From: Macrostomum lignano | Taxonomy: Eukaryota | Length of the DNA stretch: 41,469 bases | NCBI GenBank assembly: GCA_002269645.1 | Contig: NIVC01001572.1 | Coordinates: 45,052 to 86,520 of the forward strand | Direction: 5' to 3' | Shown here: positions 26,743-41,469 of the stretch, one piece after another | Numbering within the stretch: position 1 is the stretch's first letter | Layout of the letters: each line of letters opens with the position of its first letter | Position numbers and translations under genes: made by a program | The notes under the pieces: generated by a model | Database searches by the model: none | What the model saw: only the letters and a program-made list of their open reading frames with translations | What the model was told of the DNA's origin: nothing

Positions 26743-28245
26743 GCTGCGAGCCTGAAAGCTGCTTCGTCTTGTTCAAAGCAGCGGCAAGTCGGTGGCCGGT
26801 CTCGGCGAGGCCATGCAGGAGAATTGAAGGCGCGCTGTGGCCACCCGCGCTGAGCTCTCGGCGGTGAAAAAATGCGTGGGTCGGGGCGCAGCCGAGCTGC
26901 TCAAACTGATGCAGCAGCCAGCTGCCAGAGCTGCAGCAGCTGATCACCAAGGTGATCTTATAGTAGTCTATGGCCGAGAGCTCTTCTTTGGCAATCGAAT
27001 AAAAGTACTTCGTGAGGGTTAAATATAACCCCGTGACCCTAACCCTGCTGTGAGCTACTTGCTACTGACAAATACGCTCGTAAATCGTTCGTCTGGAAAG
27101 TGAGCTCTTGTCTCAGGTTCTCAAACTCGACTCTAAAATATGCAGGACCATGTGCGATCGTGCGTGGATGCTCGCGACGATATTTAATGTTGAGTCTGTT
27201 TTACGTGTACACTCGGCCTAATCACCCAACAGGACACAAATTTAAAAATGAGACGTTTGCTATTGCTGTACTCGTATGCTTTCTAAATGAGTCCATTGGG
27301 CACGAGTTTATTGGGCAAATTAAGCCGAGCTCCAGGTAAGCAAGGCAAGCTTGCCGTGATGGGGCAGTAGCTTGTCAATGCTCCACGCACTCACACACAC
27401 CATAGGCTGTTATCTCAGTTAGTATCGGTTAGTAAATGGTTCTACTGTTCAACCGAAAGTTTCGACCACAAGCTGTTAGGGCGCCAGTTTGCTCGATCGC
27501 AAGTTGGAAAATTGGAACAATAAAATCTGCCTCAGTCAGCGTTATTTCAAACCAATAGCAAGAGATGCAAAAGAGTTCGACGAGATCGGACCCGGCCGTT
27601 GTGCGTCATTCGGCGGCTCCACCAGTGCTGCAGCTGTACCGCTGTCGCAGATCTTGGGCGCTGATCTCAGCAGTTTTCGTGGGAGCCCGACGTTCTTAGT
27701 GCAAGCCAACTTCAGCAGGCTGAACTTTCTAATTTTCACCTGTGCATCCCGCTAGGCGGGGCGAGCACAATGAACTCCTGCTGAACTGGTCTTGCTGTCC
27801 TGGGCTGATCGGCTGATTGTTGATGTTCGCACTGCTGAGATAGTTGATGCTGCTGCTGGTGTGAGCCGAGCTACGCTGGGAGCCTTAGACAAAGGATAGC
27901 GTCCGCAACGTTGGGGCCTACTTCTTAACTTTGGTCCCCTCGCTCCAGGCTCACCATTGTGTCCTCTCGTACCGTCCAGCCCCGGACAGGTGACACGACA
28001 AGCCGCCAAATGAATGTGAAGGAGCGTAGAATGGAACGTGGCGCAAGAGACTGCTTCTGGTCGCACAGCTGCTGAGACCAAATGGAGGAGAGCTGACAGC
28101 CTTCACAACAACTCAAATGAAAGTTGAACTCCATGAATAAAGTCGGTGCGTATTGAATTTAGACAGGCATTGCGAAATAAATGGGCCGCGTGTATTTGGA
28201 GAGCAGAAAACTGCAGTCGCTCTGAAAACTGTAAAAACCACTCAG

Positions 28246-29302
28246 AGAAGCCGCAGACACGCTAAACCTCCGGCTCCATCAGAGTCAGGTAGGCATCCAC
28301 AATCAGAAGCCGCAGACACGCTAAACCTCCGGCTCCATCAGAGTCAGGTAGGCATCCACAATCAGAAGCCGCAGACACGCTAAACCTCCGGCTCCATCAG
28401 AGTCAGGTAGGCATCCACAATCAGAAGCCGCAGACACGCTAAACCTCCGGCTCCATCAGAGTCAGGTAGGCATCCACAATCAGAAGCCGCAGACACGCTA
28501 AACCTCCGGCTCCATCAGAGTCAGGTAGGCATCCACAATCAGAAGCCGCAGACACGCTAAACCTCCGGCTCCATCAGAGTCAGGTAGGCATCCACAATCA
28601 GAAGCCGCAGACACGCTAAACCTCCGGCTCCATCAGAGTCAGGTAGGCATCCACAATCAGAAGCCGCAGACACGCTAAACCTCCGGCTCCATCAGAGTCA
28701 GGTAGGCATCCACAATCAGAAGCCGCAGACACACTAAACCTCCGGCTCCATCAGAGTCAGGTAGGCATCCACAATCAGAAGCCGCAGACACGCTAAACCT
28801 CCGGCTCCATCAGAGTCAGGTAGGCATCCACAATCAGAAGCCGCAGACACACTAAACCTCCGGCTCCATCAGAGTCAGGTAGGCATCCACAATCAGAAGC
28901 CGCAGACACGCTAAACCTCCGGCTCCATCAGAGTCAGGTAGGCATCCACAATCAGAAGCCGCAGACACGCTAAACCTCCGGCTCCATCAGAGTCAGGTAG
29001 GCATCCACAATCAGAAGCCGCAGACACACTAAACCTCCGGCTCCATCAGAGTCAGGTAGGCATCCACAATCAGAAGCCGCAGACACGCTAAACCTCCGGC
29101 TCCATCAGAGTCAGGTAGGCATCCACAATCAGAAGCCGCAGACACACTAAACCTCCGGCTCCATCAGAGTCAGGTAGGCATCCACAATCAGAAGCCGCAG
29201 ACACGCTAAACCTCCGGCTCCATCAGAGTCAGGTAGGCATCCACAATCAGAAGCCGCAGACACGCTAAACCTCCGGCTCCATCAGAGTCAGGTAGGCATC
29301 CA
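28246..29302. repeat. 59-bp tandem repeat x~18, overlapping the stop codon and 3' UTR of the F-box gene
   Basis: Unit AGAAGCCGCAGACACGCTAAACCTCCGGCTCCATCAGAGTCAGGTAGGCATCCACAATC, period 59. Confidence 0.97.
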
Positions 29303-32151
29303 GAATCAGCTCTTTCGCATCGCTGCCCGAGGCCACGAGGACGGGCTGCTCGTAGGCAGACTGGAAAGCTGCAACTGCGGCCTCAGTCAGGTCGTCGCAG
29401 CCGGCAATGACCAGCTGCTGCAGCCACGGGCAGCCATTCCGGATACTGGCCAGGGCAGCGGGGGTCAGCTGGGTGCAGCCAGACAGCCACAGCCGCCGCA
29501 GGCCCCTGGCAACCGGACTGGCGCACAGGTCAGCAATTGCCTCATCGGTGAGGCTGGGCTCGGATTTGTAAGGCTCGCGGTCAGCCTCAGGGTAGAGCAG
29601 CACCCTGAGCTCGAGCAGGTCCGCTGAGCAGTTTTGAACGGTTCGCAGGTTCGCCCAGGCCCGGCCGGTGAGGCGCCGGCAGTCGAGGAGGCGGAGGCAG
29701 CGCAGGCGGGGCAGCTGGACGAGCAGAGCCGGTAGGCGGTCGTCGTGGCACACGTCCAGGGTGAGGTGGGTCAGGCCTGCGGAGGGCGGAGTGCCGCACG
29801 ACTCTCAAACTGCTGCATGAGTTTAAGGGTTTCTAAGGTTAAAGGTTAAAGGTTTCTAAGAAACCTCTTTTATCCGGCCCTCGCTCGGATCCATTGAAAC
29901 TTCACAATAGCAATCCGACCAGCTAAAGGTTGGTCATTGGTGTCAGTTCCCTCTTTTCTTTCTTGTCTTCTCTCTCCCTCTTTCTCTCTCCTCTCCTCTC
30001 CTCTCCTTTCCTCTCTCCCCTCTCCACCTCTTCCCTCCCTTATCCTCTCTTCGCTCTTCTCTCCCGTCTTCTCTCCTCTTATCTTACATTTTTTCTCATC
30101 CCATATTTCGCCTCTTCTCTTATCACTCATATTCTATTCCTTCTCCTTTACCTTAAGGATTGAAGAAATCATTGTGGGGGGGGGGCAGGATTCTCCGCAG
30201 CTCAAACAGTCCACACAATTGTTTCTAAGAAACCAAGTTTCCCGTCCTTCTGCACCAGTAGTCCTTGGCACAAACAGGCCAGACAGCCGCCGCTCACCCT
30301 GGCAGGCCCGCAGGCCCTCGGACTGCCCCAGGCCAGCGAAGTCCTCCAGCTCCAGCAGCGGGCAGATGCGCAGGCACAGCTGCCGGAGACCCGCCGGCAG
30401 CGGCGCGGCCAAGTCCGCATCGGCCAGGCGGCAGCGCGTGAACCGGACGATCCGCAGCTCCTCCAGACGGGCGGGCAGGCGGTCAACCAGCAGCCGGTAG
30501 GCCGCACCATCCAGGACGCGGCATTCGCCGATGCAGAGGCTGCGCAGCCGCGGGCAGGCAGCCGCCAGGCGGCCGAATCTGTCGGCAGTCAGCTGGGTGC
30601 AGAAGTCCAGCCGGAGGCCGCGAATGCCGCCGCCGTGGAGGGGGTGGATCAGCAGCTCCGCCATCGAGTTGTTGATATTTGAGTGGGGCAGAGCCAGCTC
30701 CGCCAGGCGGGACAGGCGGGACAGCAGCTGCCGGAATTCTGCGAATGCGACAGACAGACTGACTGGCTGACTGACTGACTGACCGTCTGGCTGACTGACT
30801 GACTGACTGGCTGACTGACTGACTGACTGACTGACTGACTGACTGTCTGACTGACTGACTGACTGACTGACTGGCTGACTGACTGGCTGACTGACTGACT
30901 GACTGACTGACTGACTGTCTGACTGACTGACTGACTGACTGACTGACTGACTGACTGACTGACTGACTGACTGACTGACTGACTGACTGACTGACTGACT
31001 GACTGACTGACTGACTGACTGACTGACTGACTGACTGACTGGCTGACTGACTGACTGACTGACTGACTGGCTGACTGACTGACTGACTGACTGACTGACT
31101 GACTGACTGACTGTCTGACTGACTGGCTGACTGACTGACTGACTGACTGGCTGACTGACTGACTGACTGACTGGCTGACTGACTGACTGACTGACTGGCT
31201 GGCTGACTGATTGACTGACTGACTGACTGACTGACTGACTGACTGACTGACTGGCTGACTGACTGACTGACTGACTGGCTGACTGACTGACTGACTGACT
31301 GACTGACTGACTGACTGACTGGCTGACTGACTGACTGACTGACTGACTGACTGGCTGGCTGACTGATTGACTGACTGACTGACTGACTGACTGACTGACT
31401 GACTGACTGACTGACTGACTGGCTGACTGACTGACTGACTGACTGGCTGACTGACTGACTGACTGACTGACTGGCTGACTGACGGTCGCTTACCAAGCAG
31501 GAAGATGGGGCTCAGAGTCACACTGCTTAGACTTGGGCACTCCGGCAGAACAGAGACAACCTGCCGCACCAGCCGATGGCTCACCTCCAGGTGCAGCGAA
31601 GTCAGCCGGCCGATGATGCCCGCCAGCAGCGACACGAGGTTCGCGTTCTCGGTTGAAAAGTTCGAATACTCGCGGAAGTCCAGCTCGGCCAGGCTCGGAC
31701 AGCCGGCCAGCAGCTGCTTGGCCGGGTCCTCGGTAAACAGCCAGCCGGAGTAGTGCAGCCGCAGACTGCGCAGGCGGGGGCAGCAGCGGCCCAGAACGGA
31801 CAGCGGGTTCGGCCCAGGCCGCCGGTCCCTGTCCGCGTGGTCCGCTTCGTTCTGCGGCTTCTCCAAGGTGAATTTCTGCAGGTTCTTCGACTTGCTCAGC
31901 AGTGGCGCCAGCTCCAGAGCGATCAGCCGGTCGGCGCGGAGCTCCAGCAGCGAGGCGGACAGCCAGGCGGTCAGGCGGGCGATCAGGTTTGGATTGACCG
32001 ACGGGTTGGCGCGGATTCGAATTCGGCGCCACAGCCACGGCTGGGCAACGATTTGCCGCCAGCGCCTGCTCAGCTGAGCGCACCGGCCGAGGCTGGTCTG
32101 GTCCAGCTCGGACAGGATCTGCGTGAGCAGCTCGACAGGCAGCTGCTCCAT
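29265..32151 (-). CDS. F-box/leucine-rich-repeat (FBXL-type) protein: complement(join(29265-29776, 30298-30738, 31494-32151))
   Basis: F-box MEQLPVELLTQILSELDQTSLGRCAQLSRRWRQIV, followed by AMN1-type LRRs (LRSLCIGECRVL, LRRLWLSGCTQLT, LQQLVIAGCDDLT). Both introns are phase 1 with GTAAGC or GTGAGC donors and CGCAG acceptors. Confidence 0.9.
29950..30160. repeat. CT-rich low-complexity tract in F-box gene intron 2
   Basis: Near-pure pyrimidine plus strand. Confidence 0.85.
30753..31483. repeat. (GACT)n / (CAGT)n microsatellite filling F-box gene intron 1
   Basis: Direct reading, with GGCT, GTCT and GATT variants. Confidence 0.98.
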
Positions 32152-32316
32152 CTGCTCCGATGCTTGACAGAAAACCCGGCCAATTAGCTGCTTAAACATG
32201 TCTGCATGCACTTTGGTGCTTGTCTATGGTACCCAAGAAATCTAATTTTTTACTTCCGATTTACTCGGCCGCGTGGCAACATTGAGTGACTAAGTTCTCA
32301 GTCTTGCTTTGAAATA

Positions 32317-32777
32317 TTCAGTGACATTTGCTTCTGCTTCAGTGACATTTGCTTATCATTCAGTGACATTTGCTTCTGCTTCAGTGACATTTTCAACTGC
32401 TGGCATCAATGAGCAGATACAACAATTTCAACTGCTCATATCAATGAGCAGATACAACAGTTTCAACTGCTCACATCAATGAGCAGATACAACAGTTTCA
32501 ACTGCTCATATCAATGAGCAGATACAACAGTTTCAACTGCTCACATCAATGAGTAGATACAACAGTTTCAACTGCTCACATCAATGAGCAGATACAACAG
32601 TTTCAACTGCTCATATCAATGAGCAGATACAACACTTTCAACTGCTCACATCAATGAGTAGATACAACAGTTTCAACTGCTCACATCAATGAGCAGATAC
32701 AACAGTTTCAACTGCTCACATCAATGAGCAGATACAACAGTTTCAACTGCTCACATCAATGAGCAGATACAACAATT
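32317..32777. repeat. Two adjacent arrays: 21-bp x~3.6 (32317-32392) and 35-bp x~11 (32393-32777, TCAACTGCTCACATCAATGAGCAGATACAACAGTT)
   Basis: Period 35 (32463, 32498, ...). Confidence 0.93.
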
Positions 32778-33357
32778 TTAAGCAAATTGAACAAAAGCTA
32801 TAAAAATGCAATAAAATGTCTCGGATACAAAGCAAACTGCAGGCAGGAACCACAACTCATGTCCTGATCTGGATAGAGAAAAGCAGCTCAACCCTATAAT
32901 AATAAGATTTTGATTACAACTGAATCAGTAGATAACATGCCTACTTTTCAGTCCTACCTCTAGTTAGGCATAGCATGAGCCAATAAAAAGTATTCTCATT
33001 ATTGTTAAATGTAAGTTTCGTTTTTAGCAACAAAAGCTTTTTATGTGCAGCGCCAGCCATTTTAGGAATTAAGAATTGTTATGTCTTCTTTTACACCGAA
33101 GAAAGACGGAAGATAGTGCTTGAGCGTTTGCGAGCTTATGCCACTCGAGAGCATAGCCGTTTCAGAAACTTAATATATTTCTTTGGGTCGCGAGCCGTCT
33201 CAAGCATTTAATACTGTACCGAGTATCTAGAGTTTCAACCCTAGACACTTTAGAAGCAGAAAGCAAACGAAGCCGAAGTCTATAAGAAGTCAGAAGTCAC
33301 GTCACAACATCTGTGACAACATCTGTCACAACATCTATTTAGATACTTTCAATATAG

Positions 33358-34058
33358 TGTTGGGCTGCGCCCTTCCAGTGTGTATGTACTCGTACTTTTG
33401 TTTTCAGTTTTCATGCCACCCCGCCCCGTCCCCCGTCTCGCGCCCGGGCCAGGGTTTGTGAGAGGCGTAAGTCTCAACCCTGGCCTAGCCCTTTGCACCC
33501 AGCCCCCGGCCCAATCTCTGTCCAATCTGGGTGCCCCCCCCCTCCCTCGTTGCCCGCCTCACCCTGGGGCTGCTCGTATTGGCTGGCTGGCTGATAAGCC
33601 GGCTGGGCCCCAGGGTTTGGCTCGCCGTCTCCATTCTGCCCCACCCCTCCCCCTTTTTTGTGTATTATTTAAATGCTAGCCCTGAGCGGGCTGCGCTCCA
33701 CGTTTGCTCTCTATTGGTGTCCGCTTCGTTCTTACTGTTTTTGCGTTCATCGGCGTACCTCTGCCTTCGCGTGCCAATAACTGCTTCGGGCCAACAAACG
33801 CTTCGTGATTAACTCGATATATCAAGAGGAGGTGAGCTCGAGCTTTCGTTCTTCTGGGTTGCCGCGTGGGGCCGGGATCTGCAGGGACCTGGGAACGGTG
33901 AACTCTCGCCGATCCCAGGGTGTTCGGTCAGGCGAACTCTCGCCGAACCGAGCGAGACAGGGTAGGAATAGCCGGGGTGAGGGCTGGGACAGGGGTGTCT
34001 CAGGCGGGGAGGGCCCGAACCTTGACCCGTCCAGCGGCCATTAGGCCGAGACACAACA
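33358..34058 (+). repeat. 5' LTR, 701 bp (TGTTGGG...ACAACA)
   Basis: TG...CA ends. The first ~187 bp match 41283-41469. Followed by the PBS after 2 nt. TATA-like TATTTAAA near 33666. Confidence 0.95.
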
Positions 34059-34060
34059 AG

Positions 34061-34078
34061 TGGTGCCGTGACCAGGAT
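34061..34078 (+). other. Primer-binding site TGGTGCCGTGACCAGGAT, probably tRNA-His
   Basis: The reverse complement ...GTCACGGCACCA matches the 3' end of eukaryotic tRNA-His plus CCA. Confidence 0.8.
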
Positions 34079-34182: not shown

Positions 34183-35162
34183 ATGGCCAATTTAGACGAT
34201 CTGATTGACGCCCTGACGGCGCGTCTGCAAAACGAACTTAATGTGGCACAGCGGGTGCCGAGGCCAAATAAGTACGTGCCCACACAGGACTTTGCCCTTT
34301 GGATGCAACAATTCACAGGGTATTGTGAGGCGGCTCATATTCTAGGGGATCAGCGCAAGCAGGCGCTGCTCAGTCTGCTTGACTTTAATACTGCTTTTAA
34401 GGCTGTTGCGAATCTTGAGTTGGCCGATGATTTGCCGTATGATGAGTTTGTTGAGCAGCTAGAAGCTAGGTTTGATGAGAATAGGACTGCTCAAGATTAC
34501 AAGACCGAGTTCCAGAGTAGGAATCAGAAAGATGGCGAGCCCATTGAAGAATATGCAGACGTGCTCAAGGAGCTTATGAGAAAATCGTACCCAATGCTGC
34601 CAGCGGCCCAGCGAGAAGAGTTGGTGAAAGACAGGTTTTTGAAGGGGATTCGGGTGCCAGCCCGGGTGCTGGAGAGCGTGCTGCTGCAAGCGCCAGAGAC
34701 GCTCCAGGACGCTATTAGGCGGGTGCGTCAAGTGAGGGCATCGTTGGCTCTGATGGAGCCTGAGGGTAAGCGAGCTGTGCACATGGTGGGGGTCAGGCCG
34801 CAGCGGCTGGCAACAGCCAGGAGTCCAGGGCAGCCGCCGAGATAGCAGCTCTGAAAGCGGAAGTGGCTCAGCTAAAAGCAAGTGCTGCAGCGCCCACTGC
34901 GCCGATGGCGACAGCAAGGTCTGAGCAGCCAAAAGTGAGCTTGCAGCATCGAGCCCCTGAGCAGAGTCAGCAGCAGAGGCAGTGTGGTCGGTGCCTGCAG
35001 ACAGGGCATACTACGGCTCGGTGCCGTAATGCAGTGGTCTGCCGGGAGTGTGGCCAGTCAGGGCACATGCGCAACCGCTGCGATCGTCGGTGGGACCAGT
35101 CGGGTTCGGGAAACGGATTGGGGGCTCGGCCGGGGCACCCGTCCGGGCCCCAGCGTCAGTGA
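34183..35162 (+). CDS. gag: Gag with two CCHC zinc knuckles; 1-nt frameshift in the G5 run at 34788-34792
   Basis: MANLDDLIDAL...capsid-like region (RNQKDGEPIEEYADVLKELMRKSYP...LVKDRFLKGI). Adding one G joins it to GQAAAAGNSQ...AEIAALKAEVAQLK and CGRCLQTGHTTARC / CRECGQSGHMRNRC. Confidence 0.9.
35108..35160 (+). promoter_or_regulatory. Programmed -1 ribosomal frameshift signal: G GGA AAC heptamer plus downstream GC-rich stem
   Basis: The heptamer is in X XXY YYZ register in the gag frame, and the -1 frame is the pol ORF (GKRIGGSAG...). TGGGGGCTCGG can pair with CCGGGCCCCA about 4-5 nt downstream. Confidence 0.8.
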
Positions 35163-38100
35163 ATCCGGGTGCATCGGGGGCCGCGGCCTTGTCCCAGAGT
35201 GTGCTGAGTCGGCAGGGACTGGGCTATGTGGATGCACAGTTTAGGTTTGGGCCCCCGATTGCATGTCTGCTTGACAGCGGGGCCACCGTGTCGTTGTTAA
35301 GCAACCGTTTCCTGAAGTCTAAAAAAGCCGACATTGACTTATTGCCGAATTTGCCGAATTTTTCCGTTTTCGCTGCCAATGGGGAACCGATTGCTGTACA
35401 TGGAATGGTGACGATGAAGTTTTCTGTTGGGGACACCGAGTTTTTGCACGAGTTCGCTGTGGTCGAGGAACTGGCTGTGGCATGTATTCTGGGCACTGAC
35501 TTTTTCGTGAGACACGGGATGGCGATTGACTTTGCTAGGAATTGCTTGCAGACTGCATCCTGTGTGTATCCGTTTCGCTTATCAGCAGATAAGCCGCGTC
35601 TTTGCCGTCTGGTGCTGAGTCAGCCTGAGCAGTTCAATGCAGGTCAAGAGAAGGTGGTGCACGTCAGGTTGCAGAGAAGGGTTCCCTCTGGGGTTCAGTT
35701 CCTAGGCATTGTGGAGTCTGAGAGGAGAGTGAGTAACGAGCAGATGGTGGCCAGATCGGTACAGATGCCTGACGGGGACGGTCGCTTGGCTGTCAGGGTG
35801 TTGAACACGTCAGGATGCAGTCTGTCATTAAGGAAGGGAAGCCGAATTGGTTGGTTCTCCCCAGTGGCGGCCCAGCAGCCAGCTGGGTGGCAGGTGAACT
35901 CGGTGGAGAGTGTCCGAGACGACTGGAACCCCCTCAGCGATGTCAAGGAGTGGGGAGGATGTGGCCTGACGGGCGATGAGAAGCACGAGTTTGAGCGCCT
36001 GATGGCTCGGAATCGTGATGTCTTTGCCAGGGATAGCTCGGAGTTGGGACAGTCACACTTGATGGCGCATGAGATTGACACCGGCAACGCCAAGCCAGTA
36101 AGTCAGCCGCGCGTAGGATTCCACCGCGCTGGAAGGAGGAAATTGATAAGCAGGTTGATGAGTTGTTGCAGCAGGATCGCATCTATCCCTGCTACTCTCC
36201 GTGGGCGAGCCCGATCGTGCCGGTTAAAAAGGCCGACGGTAGCTTGAGGTTGTGTCTAGACTATCGGCGCCTTAACGAGGTCACAGTGCCAGATCCTTAC
36301 CCACCGCCGCGGATGGACGAGACGCTTGATGCGCTAGGAGGGAACTGTGTTTTCTCGACGATGGATCTGGCCTCCGGCTATCATCAGTGCCCGATTGAGC
36401 CGAAGGACCAGTTGAAAACGGCGTTCGTGGTACCCAACAGGGGTCAGTTCGCCTGGAAGTGCATGAGTTTTGGCTTGCGCAATGCTCCCGCTACGTTCGC
36501 CAGGCTAATGTCTATGGCCCTGTCTGAGGTTAACTGGAAGGAGTGCCTGGTGTACTTTGACGATATAGTCGTGTTCGCCAAGTCGGTGGGTCAGCATCTC
36601 GAGCGATTGAAGCATGTTTTCCAGTGCCTGAGGGATGCCAATGTCAAGCTGAAGCCCGCCAAGTGTGTGTTCCTCGCAGAGCGGGTGAAGTTTCTGGGCC
36701 ACATCGTCTCTCAGGAGGGGATCGCAACGGATCCGAGCAAGTGCGAGGAGATCCAGAATTGGCCGAGGCCATGTAGCGCCAAGAAGGTGCAGGCATTCCT
36801 GGGTACGTGCGCCTACTATCAGTCATTTATCCCGCAGTTTTCAGAGATTGCAGCGCCGCTGTATAGGTTAACCGCAGACGGAGTGAAGTTTGAGTGGGGT
36901 AGTGAAGAGGAGAGCTCGTTTTGCAGGCTGAAAGACGCTTTGTGTTCACCGAATGTGATGGCATTCCCGGATTTTTCGCCTGGTGCCGGGGAGTTCATCC
37001 TCGACACGGACGCCAGTTCGCGCGTCGGGCTGGGAGCCGTCCTGTCACAGCGTCAAGCAGATGGCCGTGAGAAGGTGATCGCTTACGGGTCTAGGATGAT
37101 TCATGCGGCGGAGAAAAATTATTGCACCACCAGGTTAGAGTTGCTTGCCGTCGTGCACTTCGTCAAAAAGTATAGGTACTATTTGTTAGGTAGAAAGTTC
37201 ACTGTTCGTTCAGACCACAAAGCTTTGCAGTGGCTAGCCAGTCTGAAGGACGTAGAGGGTCAGTGCGCAAGGTGGCTTGAGTCGCTCCAGAACTTCGACT
37301 TTGAGATCATTCACAGGCCAGGCAAGGAGCACGGCAACGCTGATTCGCTGTCTCGCAAGTACCGAAAACACGCTGGCCATGAGAGCTGCCCTAGCTGCCA
37401 GTTTAGCGAGAATGTGCCAGTAGTGAACGCGGTGTTTGGCAGTGGGCTGTCTTCGAAGGAAGTCCAGCAGGCGCAAGTGGCCGAGAAGAAGCTTGCAGCT
37501 GTCCGCTCCTATGCCCTGGACCCGGGTTCGAACCCCAGTGCGCCTAGAGTGATGTCGTGGGAGGAGCGTGTGCTGTGGGCACAACGGCAGCTGATAAGAG
37601 TAGAGTCTGATCTGTTGTATTTTCAGAGTCCCGGGAGTGGGTGCCAGAAAAAGATCTTGCTGCCGCCGGCTTTGCTGCCGAAAGTGCTCAGTGAGCTTCA
37701 TGATGGGGTTGCAGGAGGGCACCTTGGGGTTAGGAAGACACAAGAGAAAGTGAAGGCGAGATACTGGTGGCCGGGGCTGAGTCGTTCCGTGGAAGAGTAT
37801 TGCCGGAGCTGTGTCCACTGTGCGAAGGCGAAGCCTGGGCGCAGCAACCGGGCGCCTTTGCAGCCAATCTGCTCGGAAGGAGCTTTCCAGAGGATCATGA
37901 GTGACATTGTCGGGCCGTTGCCCAAGTCCAGAGGTGGCAATCGATTCGTGCTGACAATCCAGGATTCTTTTACTAAGTGGCCGGTGGCGGTGCCCTTGTC
38001 CAATCAGCGAGCCCCGACGGTGGCGCGAGCGATTTTTGATCACTGGATTGCGCACTTTGGTTGTCCTGAATTTCTAGTCACCGATAAGGGCACCAATTTT

Positions 38101-39045
38101 GAGTCGGCTTTGATGAAGCAGTTGTGTCGGTTGCTTGCCGTTAAGAAATGCAGAACGTCCTCCTATCACCCGATGGCTGATGGTCAGGCTGAGAGTTTCA
38201 ATAAGACGTTGAAGTCAATGATCAAGTGCAGGATGAGTGAGTCGGTGGGCGAAGGAGACTGGGAGGATCTGATCCACCCGTCTCTCATGGCGTACCGTAG
38301 CAGCGTTCACAGAGGCACGGGGTACACCCCGTACTACATGCTGTACGCCAGGGAGATGCGGCTTCCAGTGGACATCGGAACCTTGCCTGAGTCCATTCCT
38401 GCCAGTGCTCCGGCGTATGTTCAGTCATTAGGTAATAGTCTGGCTGAGGCTCATTCGCAGGTGCGGACCAACCTGCAGCAGTACCAGAGGAAACAGAAAG
38501 TGCTGTACGACTCAAGGGTGCGAGGCCCGGCCATAGAAGTGGGGGATGCCGTCCTAGAATACTCGCCTGCGCTGCAGGCAGGGGAGGCAGCCAAGTTCCA
38601 TTGCAATTGGAAGGGGCCGGCGAAGGTGTTAGAGAAGATATCCGATTTGAATTACCGGGTAAAGCACGCCAATAGGGGAAAGAGAAAAATAGTGCATTAT
38701 AATAATTTGCGAAAAGTACCCGAGCGGCCTGAGCAGTTCAGGTTGATGAATAGGCATACGGCAGTGCAGCGCCGGTCGGCGCATCCGCCTGAGCCGGCAG
38801 GGTGCAGACAGGAGCCCGCGGGGCCGGCGACTAAAGAGCCGGAACTTGAGGAGGAGGAGGAGTTTTACTCGTATGTGGTGCCACCAGTTGCCGTTGGGCC
38901 TCGGCATGGGATAGTAGGGCCGGGAACGCCAGTTGCGCCATGCGCACCGGTGGCTCCAGCGGCGCCAGCCGTGTCTCCGCGCAGACTGCGCGAGCGTCGG
39001 GGTGTGCCCCCAGCGTATTACGGGAATCCGGTATTGTATCGTTAA
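35108..39045 (+). CDS. pol: Pol: aspartic protease, dUTPase-like spacer, RT, RNase H, integrase; 1-nt frameshift at ~36107-36112
   Basis: PR: LLDSGAT. RT: SPWASPIVPV...YFDDI. RH: LDTDAS...ELLAV...SDHKAL...ADSLS. IN: HDGVAGGH...CRSCVHC, SDIVGP, TDKG...35 aa...E, and a C-terminal WKGPAKV. The frames join as PVSQP-x-RRIPPRWKEEIDKQVDELLQQDRI. Confidence 0.95.
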
Positions 39046-39382
39046 TTCGCAGTGGGCTCACAAGGCGGTCGTCATAAATTGATTTTTAATATGCACTTGT
39101 ATTAATGCCTCCACGCTGTTGTCTATGGTAGAAAGCCTAAAATAACCTAAAATGAAAAAAATGATACAACCCCAAAGCACAAAAAAATCATAAAATGGAA
39201 CGCATGGAAAGCACGTAAAAAACATTAAATGTATTAAAATTACAAAGTATGCTAGGCAAGAAGCGTTCTCAATCGTATTGTAAAATAAACATGTCATAGG
39301 ATGGGTCAGGTCAGGGTCACAGTTGCTAGTCCGCAAGGCATAGGTAGTGATTGGGTTTAAATGTCATCATTGCAGGAGGACC

Positions 39383-40108
39383 ATGTCGTCGCCAACGACA
39401 CCGACTGATTTGTATGGCGTGTTAGGCGTGGGTCGGACTGCTAACTCTGCGGAGATTGAGGCAGCGTGTAGTCGTCTGTACTCAAAGCGGCCCCGCGTCT
39501 GTCCTGCCGAGGTAGAGTCTCCGGAGTCTCAGCGAGACGTGATGGCGATGTGCGTTTTATCTGACCCAGTGTTTCGGGAAGTATACGATCGGGTTGGGGA
39601 GGCAGCGTGTCAAGGGGTGTTAAAGTACGCCTACTTTTTCAATCCTCCCCCTGACGTTGAGTTGCCCGAGCAGGTCAGGTTAGCTTTGGCTAGTCTTAAG
39701 GGAAGCGCCGCAGGGGAAGCTCCAGTTCACGCGGAGATCCCAGCCGAGTTATTGGCTCCGGCTGCGCTTGCTGAGTGTAGGCGGCTGAGGGGTGCGCTGC
39801 TGGCGCGGTTGAGGGCTGGGGATAGTGAAGGAGCTTGCCTGGTGGTTCAGGAGGTGGCGAGGTTTCTTGATGGGGCTGGTGTGAGTGTGCCTGAGCAGTT
39901 GTCTAGATTCTTAGCAGTGTCTGTGTCGTTTCTGTGCAATCAGTATGGGCGGAAGAGAGGTTCTGGTGGTGGCTCCGGGAGGTGTCGGAGGGTCCCGCCT
40001 TCGGTGCTGCAGGCGGCGTTTGAGTGCGTGTTGTTGGCTGTGCGGGGTTTTGAGCTGTGTGAGTTGGGGGTCCCTTGTTGGGGAGGCTCCGGGGTCTGTC
40101 TCTCTTAG
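39383..40108 (+). CDS. Retrotransposon cargo ORF with an N-terminal J-domain-like region lacking HPD (probably exon 1, ending at donor 40058/40059)
   Basis: TDLYGVLGVGRTANSAEIEAACSRLYSKRPR...VLSDPVFREVYDRVGE aligns with the DnaJ consensus DYYEILGV...A...EIKKAYRKLA.KYHPD...VLSDPEKR..YD.YGE. Confidence 0.75.
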   Translation: MSSPTTPTDLYGVLGVGRTANSAEIEAACSRLYSKRPRVCPAEVESPESQRDVMAMCVLSDPVFREVYDRVGEAACQGVLKYAYFFNPPPDVELPEQVRLALASLKGSAAGEAPVHAEIPAELLAPAALAECRRLRGALLARLRAGDSEGACLVVQEVARFLDGAGVSVPEQLSRFLAVSVSFLCNQYGRKRGSGGGSGRCRRVPPSVLQAAFECVLLAVRGFELCELGVPCWGGSGVCLS

Positions 40109-40168
40109 TGGATCCTGGCCTCGCGCGGCGCCCGGAGGAGAGGGAGTGACGGGCCGCACCTTTCGCAG

Positions 40169-41068
40169 ACTCCGCTGACGGCCCAGCGCGACTTGGCGAC
40201 CGAAGAGTTAACGGGTGTCGACCCGAGCAAGTACGACCGGCCGACACGGTCCAGGAGGTCTCCCCCCGTGACGACCCGAATCAGCGCAAGGTCAGCTCGG
40301 CTAAGCGTCTCGTCGATGCAAAGGCATACCTAACGAGGCTGGGCCGGTCGATTCAGCCCGAGGACCTTCGTGGCGTGCGTCGATGTCTAGCGGCTGTAAA
40401 CTCGCCGTACTGCCTGCGTCTAGAATGTCCCGTGGTCCGACCACTGCTGCAAGACCGACGGATCGTGTTCGCCCTGGCCTGAAGGCCAGTGCTGCACCGT
40501 GGTGGCCATCGCTGCGAGACGATGTACGACGATTTCTAGCGGGTAGCTGGCCGCGTGTCGTGGCGGTCGGCGAAGTCGAGCTCAATTGGGACGCTGAGAG
40601 GTCGCAGCGCCAGGACCAGTTAACGGCGGCGATGGAGCAGTTCTTGCTTGCCAAGGAGTTCGGCCTGCCGGTTTTGTTCCGAGTTGAAGGCGGCGAACCT
40701 GCCTGGGCGGTCGCCCTAGATTCCTCCGGCAGCCGGAGTTTCAACGATGAGCGTCATGCTGGCCGAGGACCTGGACTTGCCGGAGCCGTCGAGGCCGCGC
40801 TGGTGAGCAGTGCCACGGGTCTTCTTCGAGGTGTCCGCTCGTGCCGAGGATCCCGCGAGCGGTCCAACGGGCTAAGCGTCTCCCGCGGCAGCGCCTGCTA
40901 GTGACATCGGCCGCACCGTTTGGTGGAGACCCCAAGGACCCGACAGCCATCAAGTTCGTGCCGGAAGCCCTAGCGGACAGTGAATGTGATCGCAGGTACT
41001 GGACTCGACTGTTTGCGACCAACTGTAGTAGATTTTTTGGCGATTGTAGAGTAGAATTGCGTTCTTAA
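40169..41068 (+). CDS. Retrotransposon cargo, TatD-like (metallo-hydrolase TIM barrel) domain with degenerate active site; interrupted by about 4-5 frameshifts in this sequence
   Basis: Collinear TatD-like motifs across frames: RLVDAKAYLTRL (40306), DRRIVFAL(G)LKA (~40455-40490), PRVVAVGEVELNW (40551), QFLLAKEFGLPVLFRV (~40640-40685), PRVFFEVS (~40812), KRLPRQRLLVTSAAPF (~40875-40920), FATNCSRFFG (~41012). Confidence 0.65.
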
Positions 41069-41271
41069 GCCCGTTTTCAATTTTTGCGTACGCAATAGTT
41101 TGTGTCCCGTTTTCATTTTTTCGTTTTGTTTTTTGTAATGCCGGCGATATCCACGCGTCGCGTCAAAGTTTTTCTGTTATTTTTCGGCCGTCTTTTTGAA
41201 TTAACTTTTTTTCAGACTTGCTTGTTCATGCGTTGCTTTTGCTTGACATCCCTTTCTCCTCTTCTTTTCGT

Positions 41272-41282
41272 GGAGGGGGAGA
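41272..41282 (+). other. Polypurine tract GGAGGGGGAGA
   Basis: Immediately precedes the TG start of the 3' LTR. Confidence 0.9.
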
Positions 41283-41469
41283 TGTTGGGCTGCGCCCTTC
41301 CAGTGTGTATGTACTCGTACTTTTGTTTTCAGTTTTCATGCCACCCCGCCCCGTCCCCCGTCTCGCGCCCGGGCCAGGGTTTGTGAGAGGGCGTAAGTCT
41401 CAACCCTGGCCTAGCCCTTTGCACCCAGCCCGGCCCAATCTCTGTCCAATCTGGGTGCCCCCCCCCTCC
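41283..41469 (+). repeat. 3' LTR (first 187 bp; truncated by the window end)
   Basis: Matches 33358 onward except for homopolymer length differences (GG/GGG, C5/C3). Confidence 0.95.

Follow-up and report, generated by a model that had tools for sequence, protein, structure and literature searches.

The window analysed here, a stretch of 41,469 nucleotides from the flatworm Macrostomum lignano, closes with a young LTR retrotransposon (family A) whose third reading frame, ORF3, encodes a J-like domain without the HPD motif, a helical bundle and a TatD-like barrel. In the reading we prefer, to which we give a probability of about 0.4, this protein probably comes from a spliced mRNA and probably serves the element as an accessory counter-defence factor, its J domain being predicted no longer to engage Hsp70.

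A young Ty3/gypsy element with a third gene

The element shows the hallmarks of LTR retrotransposons, namely an LTR pair, a primer-binding site (PBS), a polypurine tract (PPT) and a target-site duplication of 4 bp (seen in sibling copy L046), and Pfam recovers the Ty3/gypsy order of gag followed by protease, reverse transcriptase (RT), RNase H and integrase (Table 1). The PBS is probably tRNA-His-like. The Pfam-matched part of pol (36079-39045) lies 5' of the ORF3 frame; in L046, pol is an unbroken frame of 1338 codons. In a sibling copy, 341 nt separate the pol stop from the ORF3 frame. The frame break in gag of the window copy is an indel relative to contigs from sequencing runs. Because the two LTRs of sibling copies are 99.6-99.9% identical and two of four sequencing runs contain the unoccupied site of one insertion, family A is a young Ty3/gypsy LTR retrotransposon. 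The assembly is described as redundant (PMC12801592), so contig counts exceed the true copy number. We rejected an errantivirus-like, env-bearing element, as ORF3 is not an envelope glycoprotein: a Pfam search of ORF3 found no env family, and J, soluble helical-bundle and TatD folds account for the protein.

Other features of the window include an F-box protein gene on the minus strand (30134-32223), whose coding region holds a long 8/12-nt tandem repeat, a nuclear-receptor-type C4 zinc finger (Pfam zf-C4; 18366-19959) split over two frames, and tandem arrays at 28128-29430 and 32317-32851 with units of 59 and 35 nt. The 59-nt unit has a 28-nt inverted match (86%) to gag at 34745-34772, possibly by chance.

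Table 1. Features of the family-A element, in window coordinates
Feature	Position	Strand	Remark
5' LTR	33358..34058	+	701 bp, TG...CA ends
Candidate splice donor within LTR	33832..33838	+	putative 5' end of the ORF3 intron
PBS	34060..34077	+	identical word in families B, C, E
gag with zinc knuckle	34183..35162	+	Pfam Retrotrans_gag, zf-CCHC; one frame break in window copy
pol (protease, RT, RNase H, integrase)	35030..39045	+	one frame break in window copy
AT-rich spacer	39046..39375	+	candidate splice acceptor at its end, 7 nt 5' of ORF3 ATG
ORF3	39383..41050	+	558 codons in unbroken copies; end coordinate approximate
J-like domain without HPD	39407..39589	+	KRPR at 39485-39496
Helical bundle with Arg/Lys-rich loop	39758..40110	+	present in each of the eight ORF3 families, unlike any known family
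TatD-like TIM barrel, most metal ligands missing	40298..41045	+	fragmented in window copy
PPT	41266..41282	+
3' LTR start	41283..41469	+	cut by contig end

The full ORF3 and its window copy

In the window, the ATG at 39383 opens a frame of only 241 codons. The initial annotation, which described a J domain at 39383..39620, had found the start of a real gene, and its interval covers the first 80 of 558 codons; it overlooked the helical bundle and the TatD-like barrel. A search of the species' own genome placed family-A ORF3 on 22 contigs, the frame being fully open in ten. Unbroken copies encode 558 aa comprising the J-like domain, the helical bundle (residues ~126-243), a linker and the barrel (~306-555). 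Against an unbroken copy, window ORF3 has 12 indel places from about 40065 onward. Contigs from four sequencing runs have indels in common against the window copy; those of four other runs have zero indels within ORF3 against the unbroken copy, with the frame open in all four. Since run contigs are free of them, the breaks are private to the window copy or are assembly errors at the contig end. A structure model of the 558-aa protein reached a mean pLDDT of 60, with 70-90 across most of the barrel. Database proteins 97-100% identical to the ORF3 frame are labelled Macrostomum lignano. Separately, the contig of one truncated family-A copy also bears an Hsp70 gene (L159, G000:C339:100614-102425), ~10 kb away and probably there by coincidence.

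Family A has lost the HPD motif of its J domain

Residues 9-69 of ORF3 match the whole Pfam DnaJ profile (1-63 of 63; E 5.1e-5 in a search of 24,736 models) at 23.7 bits, below the profile's cut-off of 27.8 bits. J-domain proteins account for 34 of the 39 PDB sequence matches of the full protein at E<=10 (best E 6e-5, DNAJB13 the best match), the structure model contains four J helices (pLDDT 50-80), and in the J tree the domain nests among J domains that score above the cut-off. The view that a J domain had been captured within a retrotransposon is therefore borne out by the profile match, the PDB matches and the position between LTRs. The replacement of HPD by KRPR is likewise confirmed, and it is a property of the family rather than of one mutated copy: KRPR occurs in 21 of the 22 family-A contigs, KRPC in one decayed copy, and HPD, the mark of a functional Hsp70 co-chaperone, in none. 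The Hsp70 contact is made by the charge of helix II. Over the 13 residues before the loop, helix II holds two K/R and two D/E in family A, compared with three to six K/R in families B-H.

By the definition in PMC13254874, a recognisable J domain with a non-conservatively replaced HPD, the family-A domain is of type IV (a pseudo J protein). Pam16 and DNAJB13 are of this type too (PMC13254874), but they are cellular proteins with other domain content, whereas family A has HPD-bearing sisters that give the direction of loss. Even conservative HPD changes abolish Hsp70 stimulation (PMC13254874), and from the sequence, Hsp70 engagement is predicted to be lost in family A. HPD-less ICP22, which recruits Hsc70 (PMC13254874), speaks against this prediction.

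Sister families share a J and helical ORF3

A related J-domain query, for which 150 of 215 candidates were scored and 40 loci examined, uncovered seven further element families (B-H) with ORF3 at the same place, mostly inside LTR pairs, together with remnants of a family I and ordinary host DNAJ genes. In B-H the J fold and HPD are present and Pfam DnaJ scores reach 48-65 bits, above the cut-off. Among the best 30 loci, 22 read HPD, four read RPD and four were unreadable; the RPD loci all belong to family B, in which RPD is an independent change, and carry stops elsewhere in ORF3. A post-J extension and a helical bundle with a basic loop are common to all eight families, while the barrel occurs in three (A, B and C) and the ORF3 of family G contains a chromodomain (E 1e-12). 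In this clade, a captured J domain was joined to the helical bundle. Since seven sister families carry the same J and helical ORF3 with HPD intact, comparison of these sequences indicates that capture was clade-wide, that the J domain was a normal one when captured, and that HPD loss in family A is derived. The same seven families leave the suggestion that HPD loss was the purpose of capture unsupported.

A hydrophobic-Ser-acidic stretch, which fits the description of a SUMO-interacting motif (SIM) in PMC12751080, follows the J region in seven of nine families (B, C, D, E, F, H and I); A and G lack it. This pattern was set post hoc and arises in 2-13% of shuffles per protein; a stricter first pattern was found in two of eight families. 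LxCxE, as in polyomavirus T antigen, is absent from every ORF3.

Several copies show further rearrangements. The chromodomain of family G (L105:1302-2282, G000:C245; L106; L156) lies between the J and helical domains, outside the integrase, which is its chromovirus position, and the LTR ends and PBS of this family differ from those of the others. In a family I remnant (L044:2033-3097, L043), a P-loop (Walker A/B-like) frame with weak Pfam AAA matches comes after the J and helical pieces, either as a fusion or as a neighbour. In family E, an internal deletion (L123, G000:C506) has fused RT directly to the J and helical ORF, giving a single frame of 1099 codons that NCBI annotates as a protein (P0160), and another copy (L103, G000:C20) has a 3.3-kb tandem duplication of pol-ORF3.

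A TatD fold lacking most of its metal site

Pfam TatD matches the barrel at E 7e-6 in family A and 1e-8 in family B, and the top 16 Foldseek matches of the ORF3 model are TatD-family structures (E 5e-6, target TM 0.69). TatD enzymes use two-metal catalysis (PMC10085689), and the site it requires (HxH or GxN, Glu, two His, Asp) is incomplete here. Relative to intact TatD, family A retains the bridging Glu alone. Other residues, in several cases Arg or Lys, stand in place of the HxH pair of His, the substrate His, two metal His and a late Glu and Asp. Families B and C keep the Glu and one His, a remnant of the first HxH His, and host TatD exons keep the ligands. In TATDN1, single His or Asp changes do not abolish activity, and the most important Glu is the one kept in family A (PMC10085689). 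As single changes are tolerated, it is the joint loss of ligands that makes the family-A barrel likely to be inactive as a nuclease; inactive nuclease folds that retain RNA binding exist (PMC5408684). The ORF3 barrels thus share the TIM barrel and bridging Glu with the class II HxH type, and in B and C a trace of its first His, but differ from the TatD family (PMC10085689) in having five or six other His, Asp or Glu positions for ligands or substrate replaced, in being intronless and in residing on a retrotransposon. Class II bacterial proteins scored best in a donor comparison in which host genes entered unfairly, as single exons, and for this reason we claim no transfer. The helical domain has no sequence match in the PDB, and its best structural Z of 8.7 is in the range of generic bundles.

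Candidate splice signals and a probable spliced ORF3 message

In all eight families, a GTRAG donor-like word stands 470-620 nt into the LTR and a YAG lies within 20 nt before the J start, against a background of 48 in 120 windows; families F, G and H have the YAG abutting the ATG. In families B and C the acceptor is followed by no ATG. There the donor exon ends in A and the acceptor side starts with TG in the J frame (five of five loci each), so splicing would create the start codon. A database gene model (P0005) in family A uses the same donor and acceptor, and may be a mere prediction. We found no LTR-to-ORF3 joint in contigs of eight runs, whose RNA status is guessed and whose assembly drops rare forms. 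On the conserved signals, including the intron-split start codon of B and C, we propose that ORF3 is likely made from a spliced mRNA. Relatives without ORF3 still carry the donor-like word. No canonical heat-shock element was found in the LTR parts scanned at 19 loci, some LTRs being partly covered.

ORF3 is under selection in family A

In the J tree, a branch (87/86, unstarred) separates the 11 element rows from 11 host and 8 bacterial ones; the branch of family A is long and lies next to B and C. The tree singles out no donor among the host and bacterial rows. In the RT tree (30 rows; 3 short ones left out), support of 99/98 unites A with its sister family, B and C. In the J core, A exceeds B or C in private changes in nine of ten outgroup comparisons, which are non-independent, reaching P<0.05 in five; for the helical domain the excess is significant in none of ten.

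Across three family-A variants (three non-independent pairs), whole-ORF3 dN/dS is 0.30-0.34 (P<=8e-5). By region, it is 0.47, 0.15 and 0.16 for the J segment, about 0.96 for residues 73-125, 0.12-0.27 for the helical domain and 0.36-0.47 for TatD; pol, at 0.10-0.13, lies below ORF3. Between B and C, dN/dS is 0.09 for J and 0.14 for TatD with dS near-saturated, and pairs within D, E, F and G give 0.10-0.25; except in the last G pair and in A versus B, the rows were covered. With whole-ORF3 dN/dS well below 1, these substitution patterns indicate purifying selection on the family-A gene, its HPD-less domain included, on few changes. As the J segment remains constrained, a partner may be retained.

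Young relatives dispense with ORF3

The closest sister of family A, whose RT is 82% identical, shows no match to the J, helical or TatD domains, and its LTR matches are 98.7-100% identical. Young B copies (LTRs 99.3-99.9% identical) have only half the barrel left, and a sister of family D has no ORF3. Scanned with ORF3 profiles, 3 of 20 loci match and 17 do not. The RT tree requires four changes of the ORF3 label, and at least three losses of ORF3 fall in lineages that have young copies. Because young relatives without ORF3 exist, ORF3 is dispensable in cis; other families may supply it in trans. In the ORF3-less sister family (L137:6570-7790, L138, L142, L143, L144), a GC-rich stretch of ~600 bp between AT-rich spacers holds a 207-codon stop-free frame that no ORF3 profile matches. 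A likeness by eye between this pol-LTR interval and ORF3 was dropped, as no profile score exceeded 2 bits.

Relatives outside the genome and known systems

A search with the full 558-aa protein found no relatives outside the Macrostomum lignano genome, and JGI metagenomes and IMG/VR gave none either, blanks that do not show absence. An ORF3 alignment search (8000 candidates scored) returned only ordinary DnaJ proteins at 21-31% query coverage, a helical profile search gave two matches, both labelled as the same species, phages gave weak TatD matches only, and Atlas matches were all under 0.9. Against viral structures, the match was limited to the J domain. Among 13 matches from 1.84 billion representatives is a 166-aa pseudo-TatD on a Logan contig (P0004), which shares 51% identity with family A and no more than 51% with anything in G000; since it is absent from G000, the cargo is probably present in another genome too.

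Neither an additional ORF3 in an LTR element nor a viral J domain is new in itself. In titles and abstracts we found no description of J-domain or TatD cargo in LTR retrotransposons; Repbase, Dfam and an earlier classification paper of the species' elements may bear on this. The main text of a survey of LTR families of Macrostomum lignano (PMC12801592) is without DnaJ, TatD or ORF, and one of its supplements has DnaJ as host-type transcript annotation only; neither DnaJ nor TatD appears in the accessible part of PMC6338049. UniRef labels ORF3 fragments as J-domain proteins, without element context.

A close parallel is in bdelloid LTR retrotransposons (PMC5408684), which likewise carry family-specific, captured non-env ORF3 genes (DEDDy exonuclease, GDSL esterase) between pol and the 3' LTR, gained and lost across the tree and including a 3'-5' exonuclease-type fold. 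However, the bdelloid cargo keeps its catalytic residues, whereas ours combines a J domain, a helical bundle and a TatD barrel without most ligands, and 'DnaJ' does not occur in that paper. Viral J proteins (polyomavirus T antigen, phage Rki, RNA-virus J domains and HSV-1 ICP22; PMC13254874, 10.1101/2022.02.15.480533) also place an N-terminal J domain with targeting modules on a mobile element, but none described in these sources comes from a retrotransposon.

A model for ORF3 and its alternatives

Given the chromodomain of family G, the SIM-like stretch and the basic loop found in all families, a nuclear factor that recruits Hsp70 to silencing complexes seems the likeliest reading of ORF3. 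In the families with HPD, ORF3 would enter the nucleus, dock on SUMO- or H3K9me-marked silencing complexes and recruit Hsp70 to dismantle them, comparable to polyomavirus T antigen acting on Rb-E2F. SUMO connects piRNA targeting to heterochromatin in Drosophila (10.1101/2021.07.27.453956), a result from the fly and not from Macrostomum. In family A, the TatD barrel would have been gained first, and HPD, the helix II charge and the SUMO-motif-like stretch lost afterwards; its ORF3 would now be independent of Hsp70, with the basic loop and the metal-free barrel binding and shielding element RNA or cDNA and the J fold retained as a scaffold. Extended to the whole clade, the model would describe an animal LTR retrotransposon lineage whose modular J proteins direct Hsp70 at SUMO-/H3K9me-marked silencing complexes, as a counterpart of T antigen, one branch having replaced Hsp70 recruitment with a pseudo-TatD that protects its nucleic acid against host nucleases. 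We offer this extension tentatively, as possible rather than probable. A plant DNA transposon offers a precedent for element-encoded counter-silencing in VANC21, and SILENZIO is a J protein in transposon chromatin control, although a host repressor; no homology is claimed for either (PMC8616336).

Alternatively, ORF3 may act like Rev or CERV, a product of spliced RNA whose arginine-rich loop binds unspliced genomic RNA for nuclear export, with Hsp70 as an optional helper. CERV of the C. elegans element Cer1 (PMC10309623) is a gypsy-type accessory protein made from a spliced mRNA, which for ORF3 is our proposal only; its role in RNA export rests on experiment, and its description names no J or TatD domain. 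The donor-like word in every LTR, the acceptor 5' of ORF3 and the basic loop of every helical domain suit such a role, but ORF3-less relatives with LTR matches of 98.7-100% identity keep the donor-like word, and the SIM-like stretch and chromodomain are left unexplained, which makes export credible yet unlikely.

A decoy model built on the initial annotation appears improbable: selection would have kept the HPD-less J domain to hold Hsp70, or to pair in the manner of Pam16 with an active J protein, and so to block chaperone-dependent PIWI/Argonaute loading. The fixation of KRPR, the constraint on the J segment, the precedents of ICP22 and Pam16 (PMC13254874) and the independent RPD at four family-B loci agree with it. 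However, most families keep HPD, the family-B RPD copies carry stops, and the J core evolves faster in A. Moreover, an Hsp70-sequestering mimic is disfavoured because HPD and the basic residues of helix II were lost together in family A, as was the SUMO-motif-like stretch.

Even less can be said for a private chaperone of Gag/Pol folding, particle assembly or uncoating. Although such a role has been proposed for the polyprotein J domains of 11 RNA virus families (10.1101/2022.02.15.480533) and seven families here retain HPD, the repeated loss of ORF3 in lineages with young copies, the recent activity of HPD-less family A and the nuclear indications of chromodomain and SIM-like parts speak against it; the earlier idea of an aid to particle assembly is thus unlikely as an essential role. 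It is very improbable that HPD-bearing ORF3 draws Hsp70 off heat-shock factor to open a stress window for transcription, as phage Rki does with DnaK and sigma32 (PMC13254874): other LTR families of Macrostomum lignano are heat-induced (PMC12801592), but the scanned LTR parts contain no canonical heat-shock element, and the scheme is inapplicable to family A. Least likely of all, a decaying passenger would account for the motif losses in J and TatD, the ORF3 deletions in the sister family and young B copies and a dN/dS above that of pol, but hardly for the whole-ORF dN/dS or for frames open in 10 of 22 contigs and in all four runs compared with the unbroken copy.

Few counter-defence proteins encoded by animal retrotransposons are known. 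Under the counter-defence reading, Macrostomum lignano offers at least eight families in one tractable flatworm that share a J and helical gene, swap modules such as the chromodomain and pseudo-TatD, and provide natural gains and losses. The loss of HPD under continued selection among these families would make them a comparative series on Hsp70 recruitment against silencing, and the purpose of type IV J domains, termed "enigmatic" in PMC13254874, may be addressable with them.
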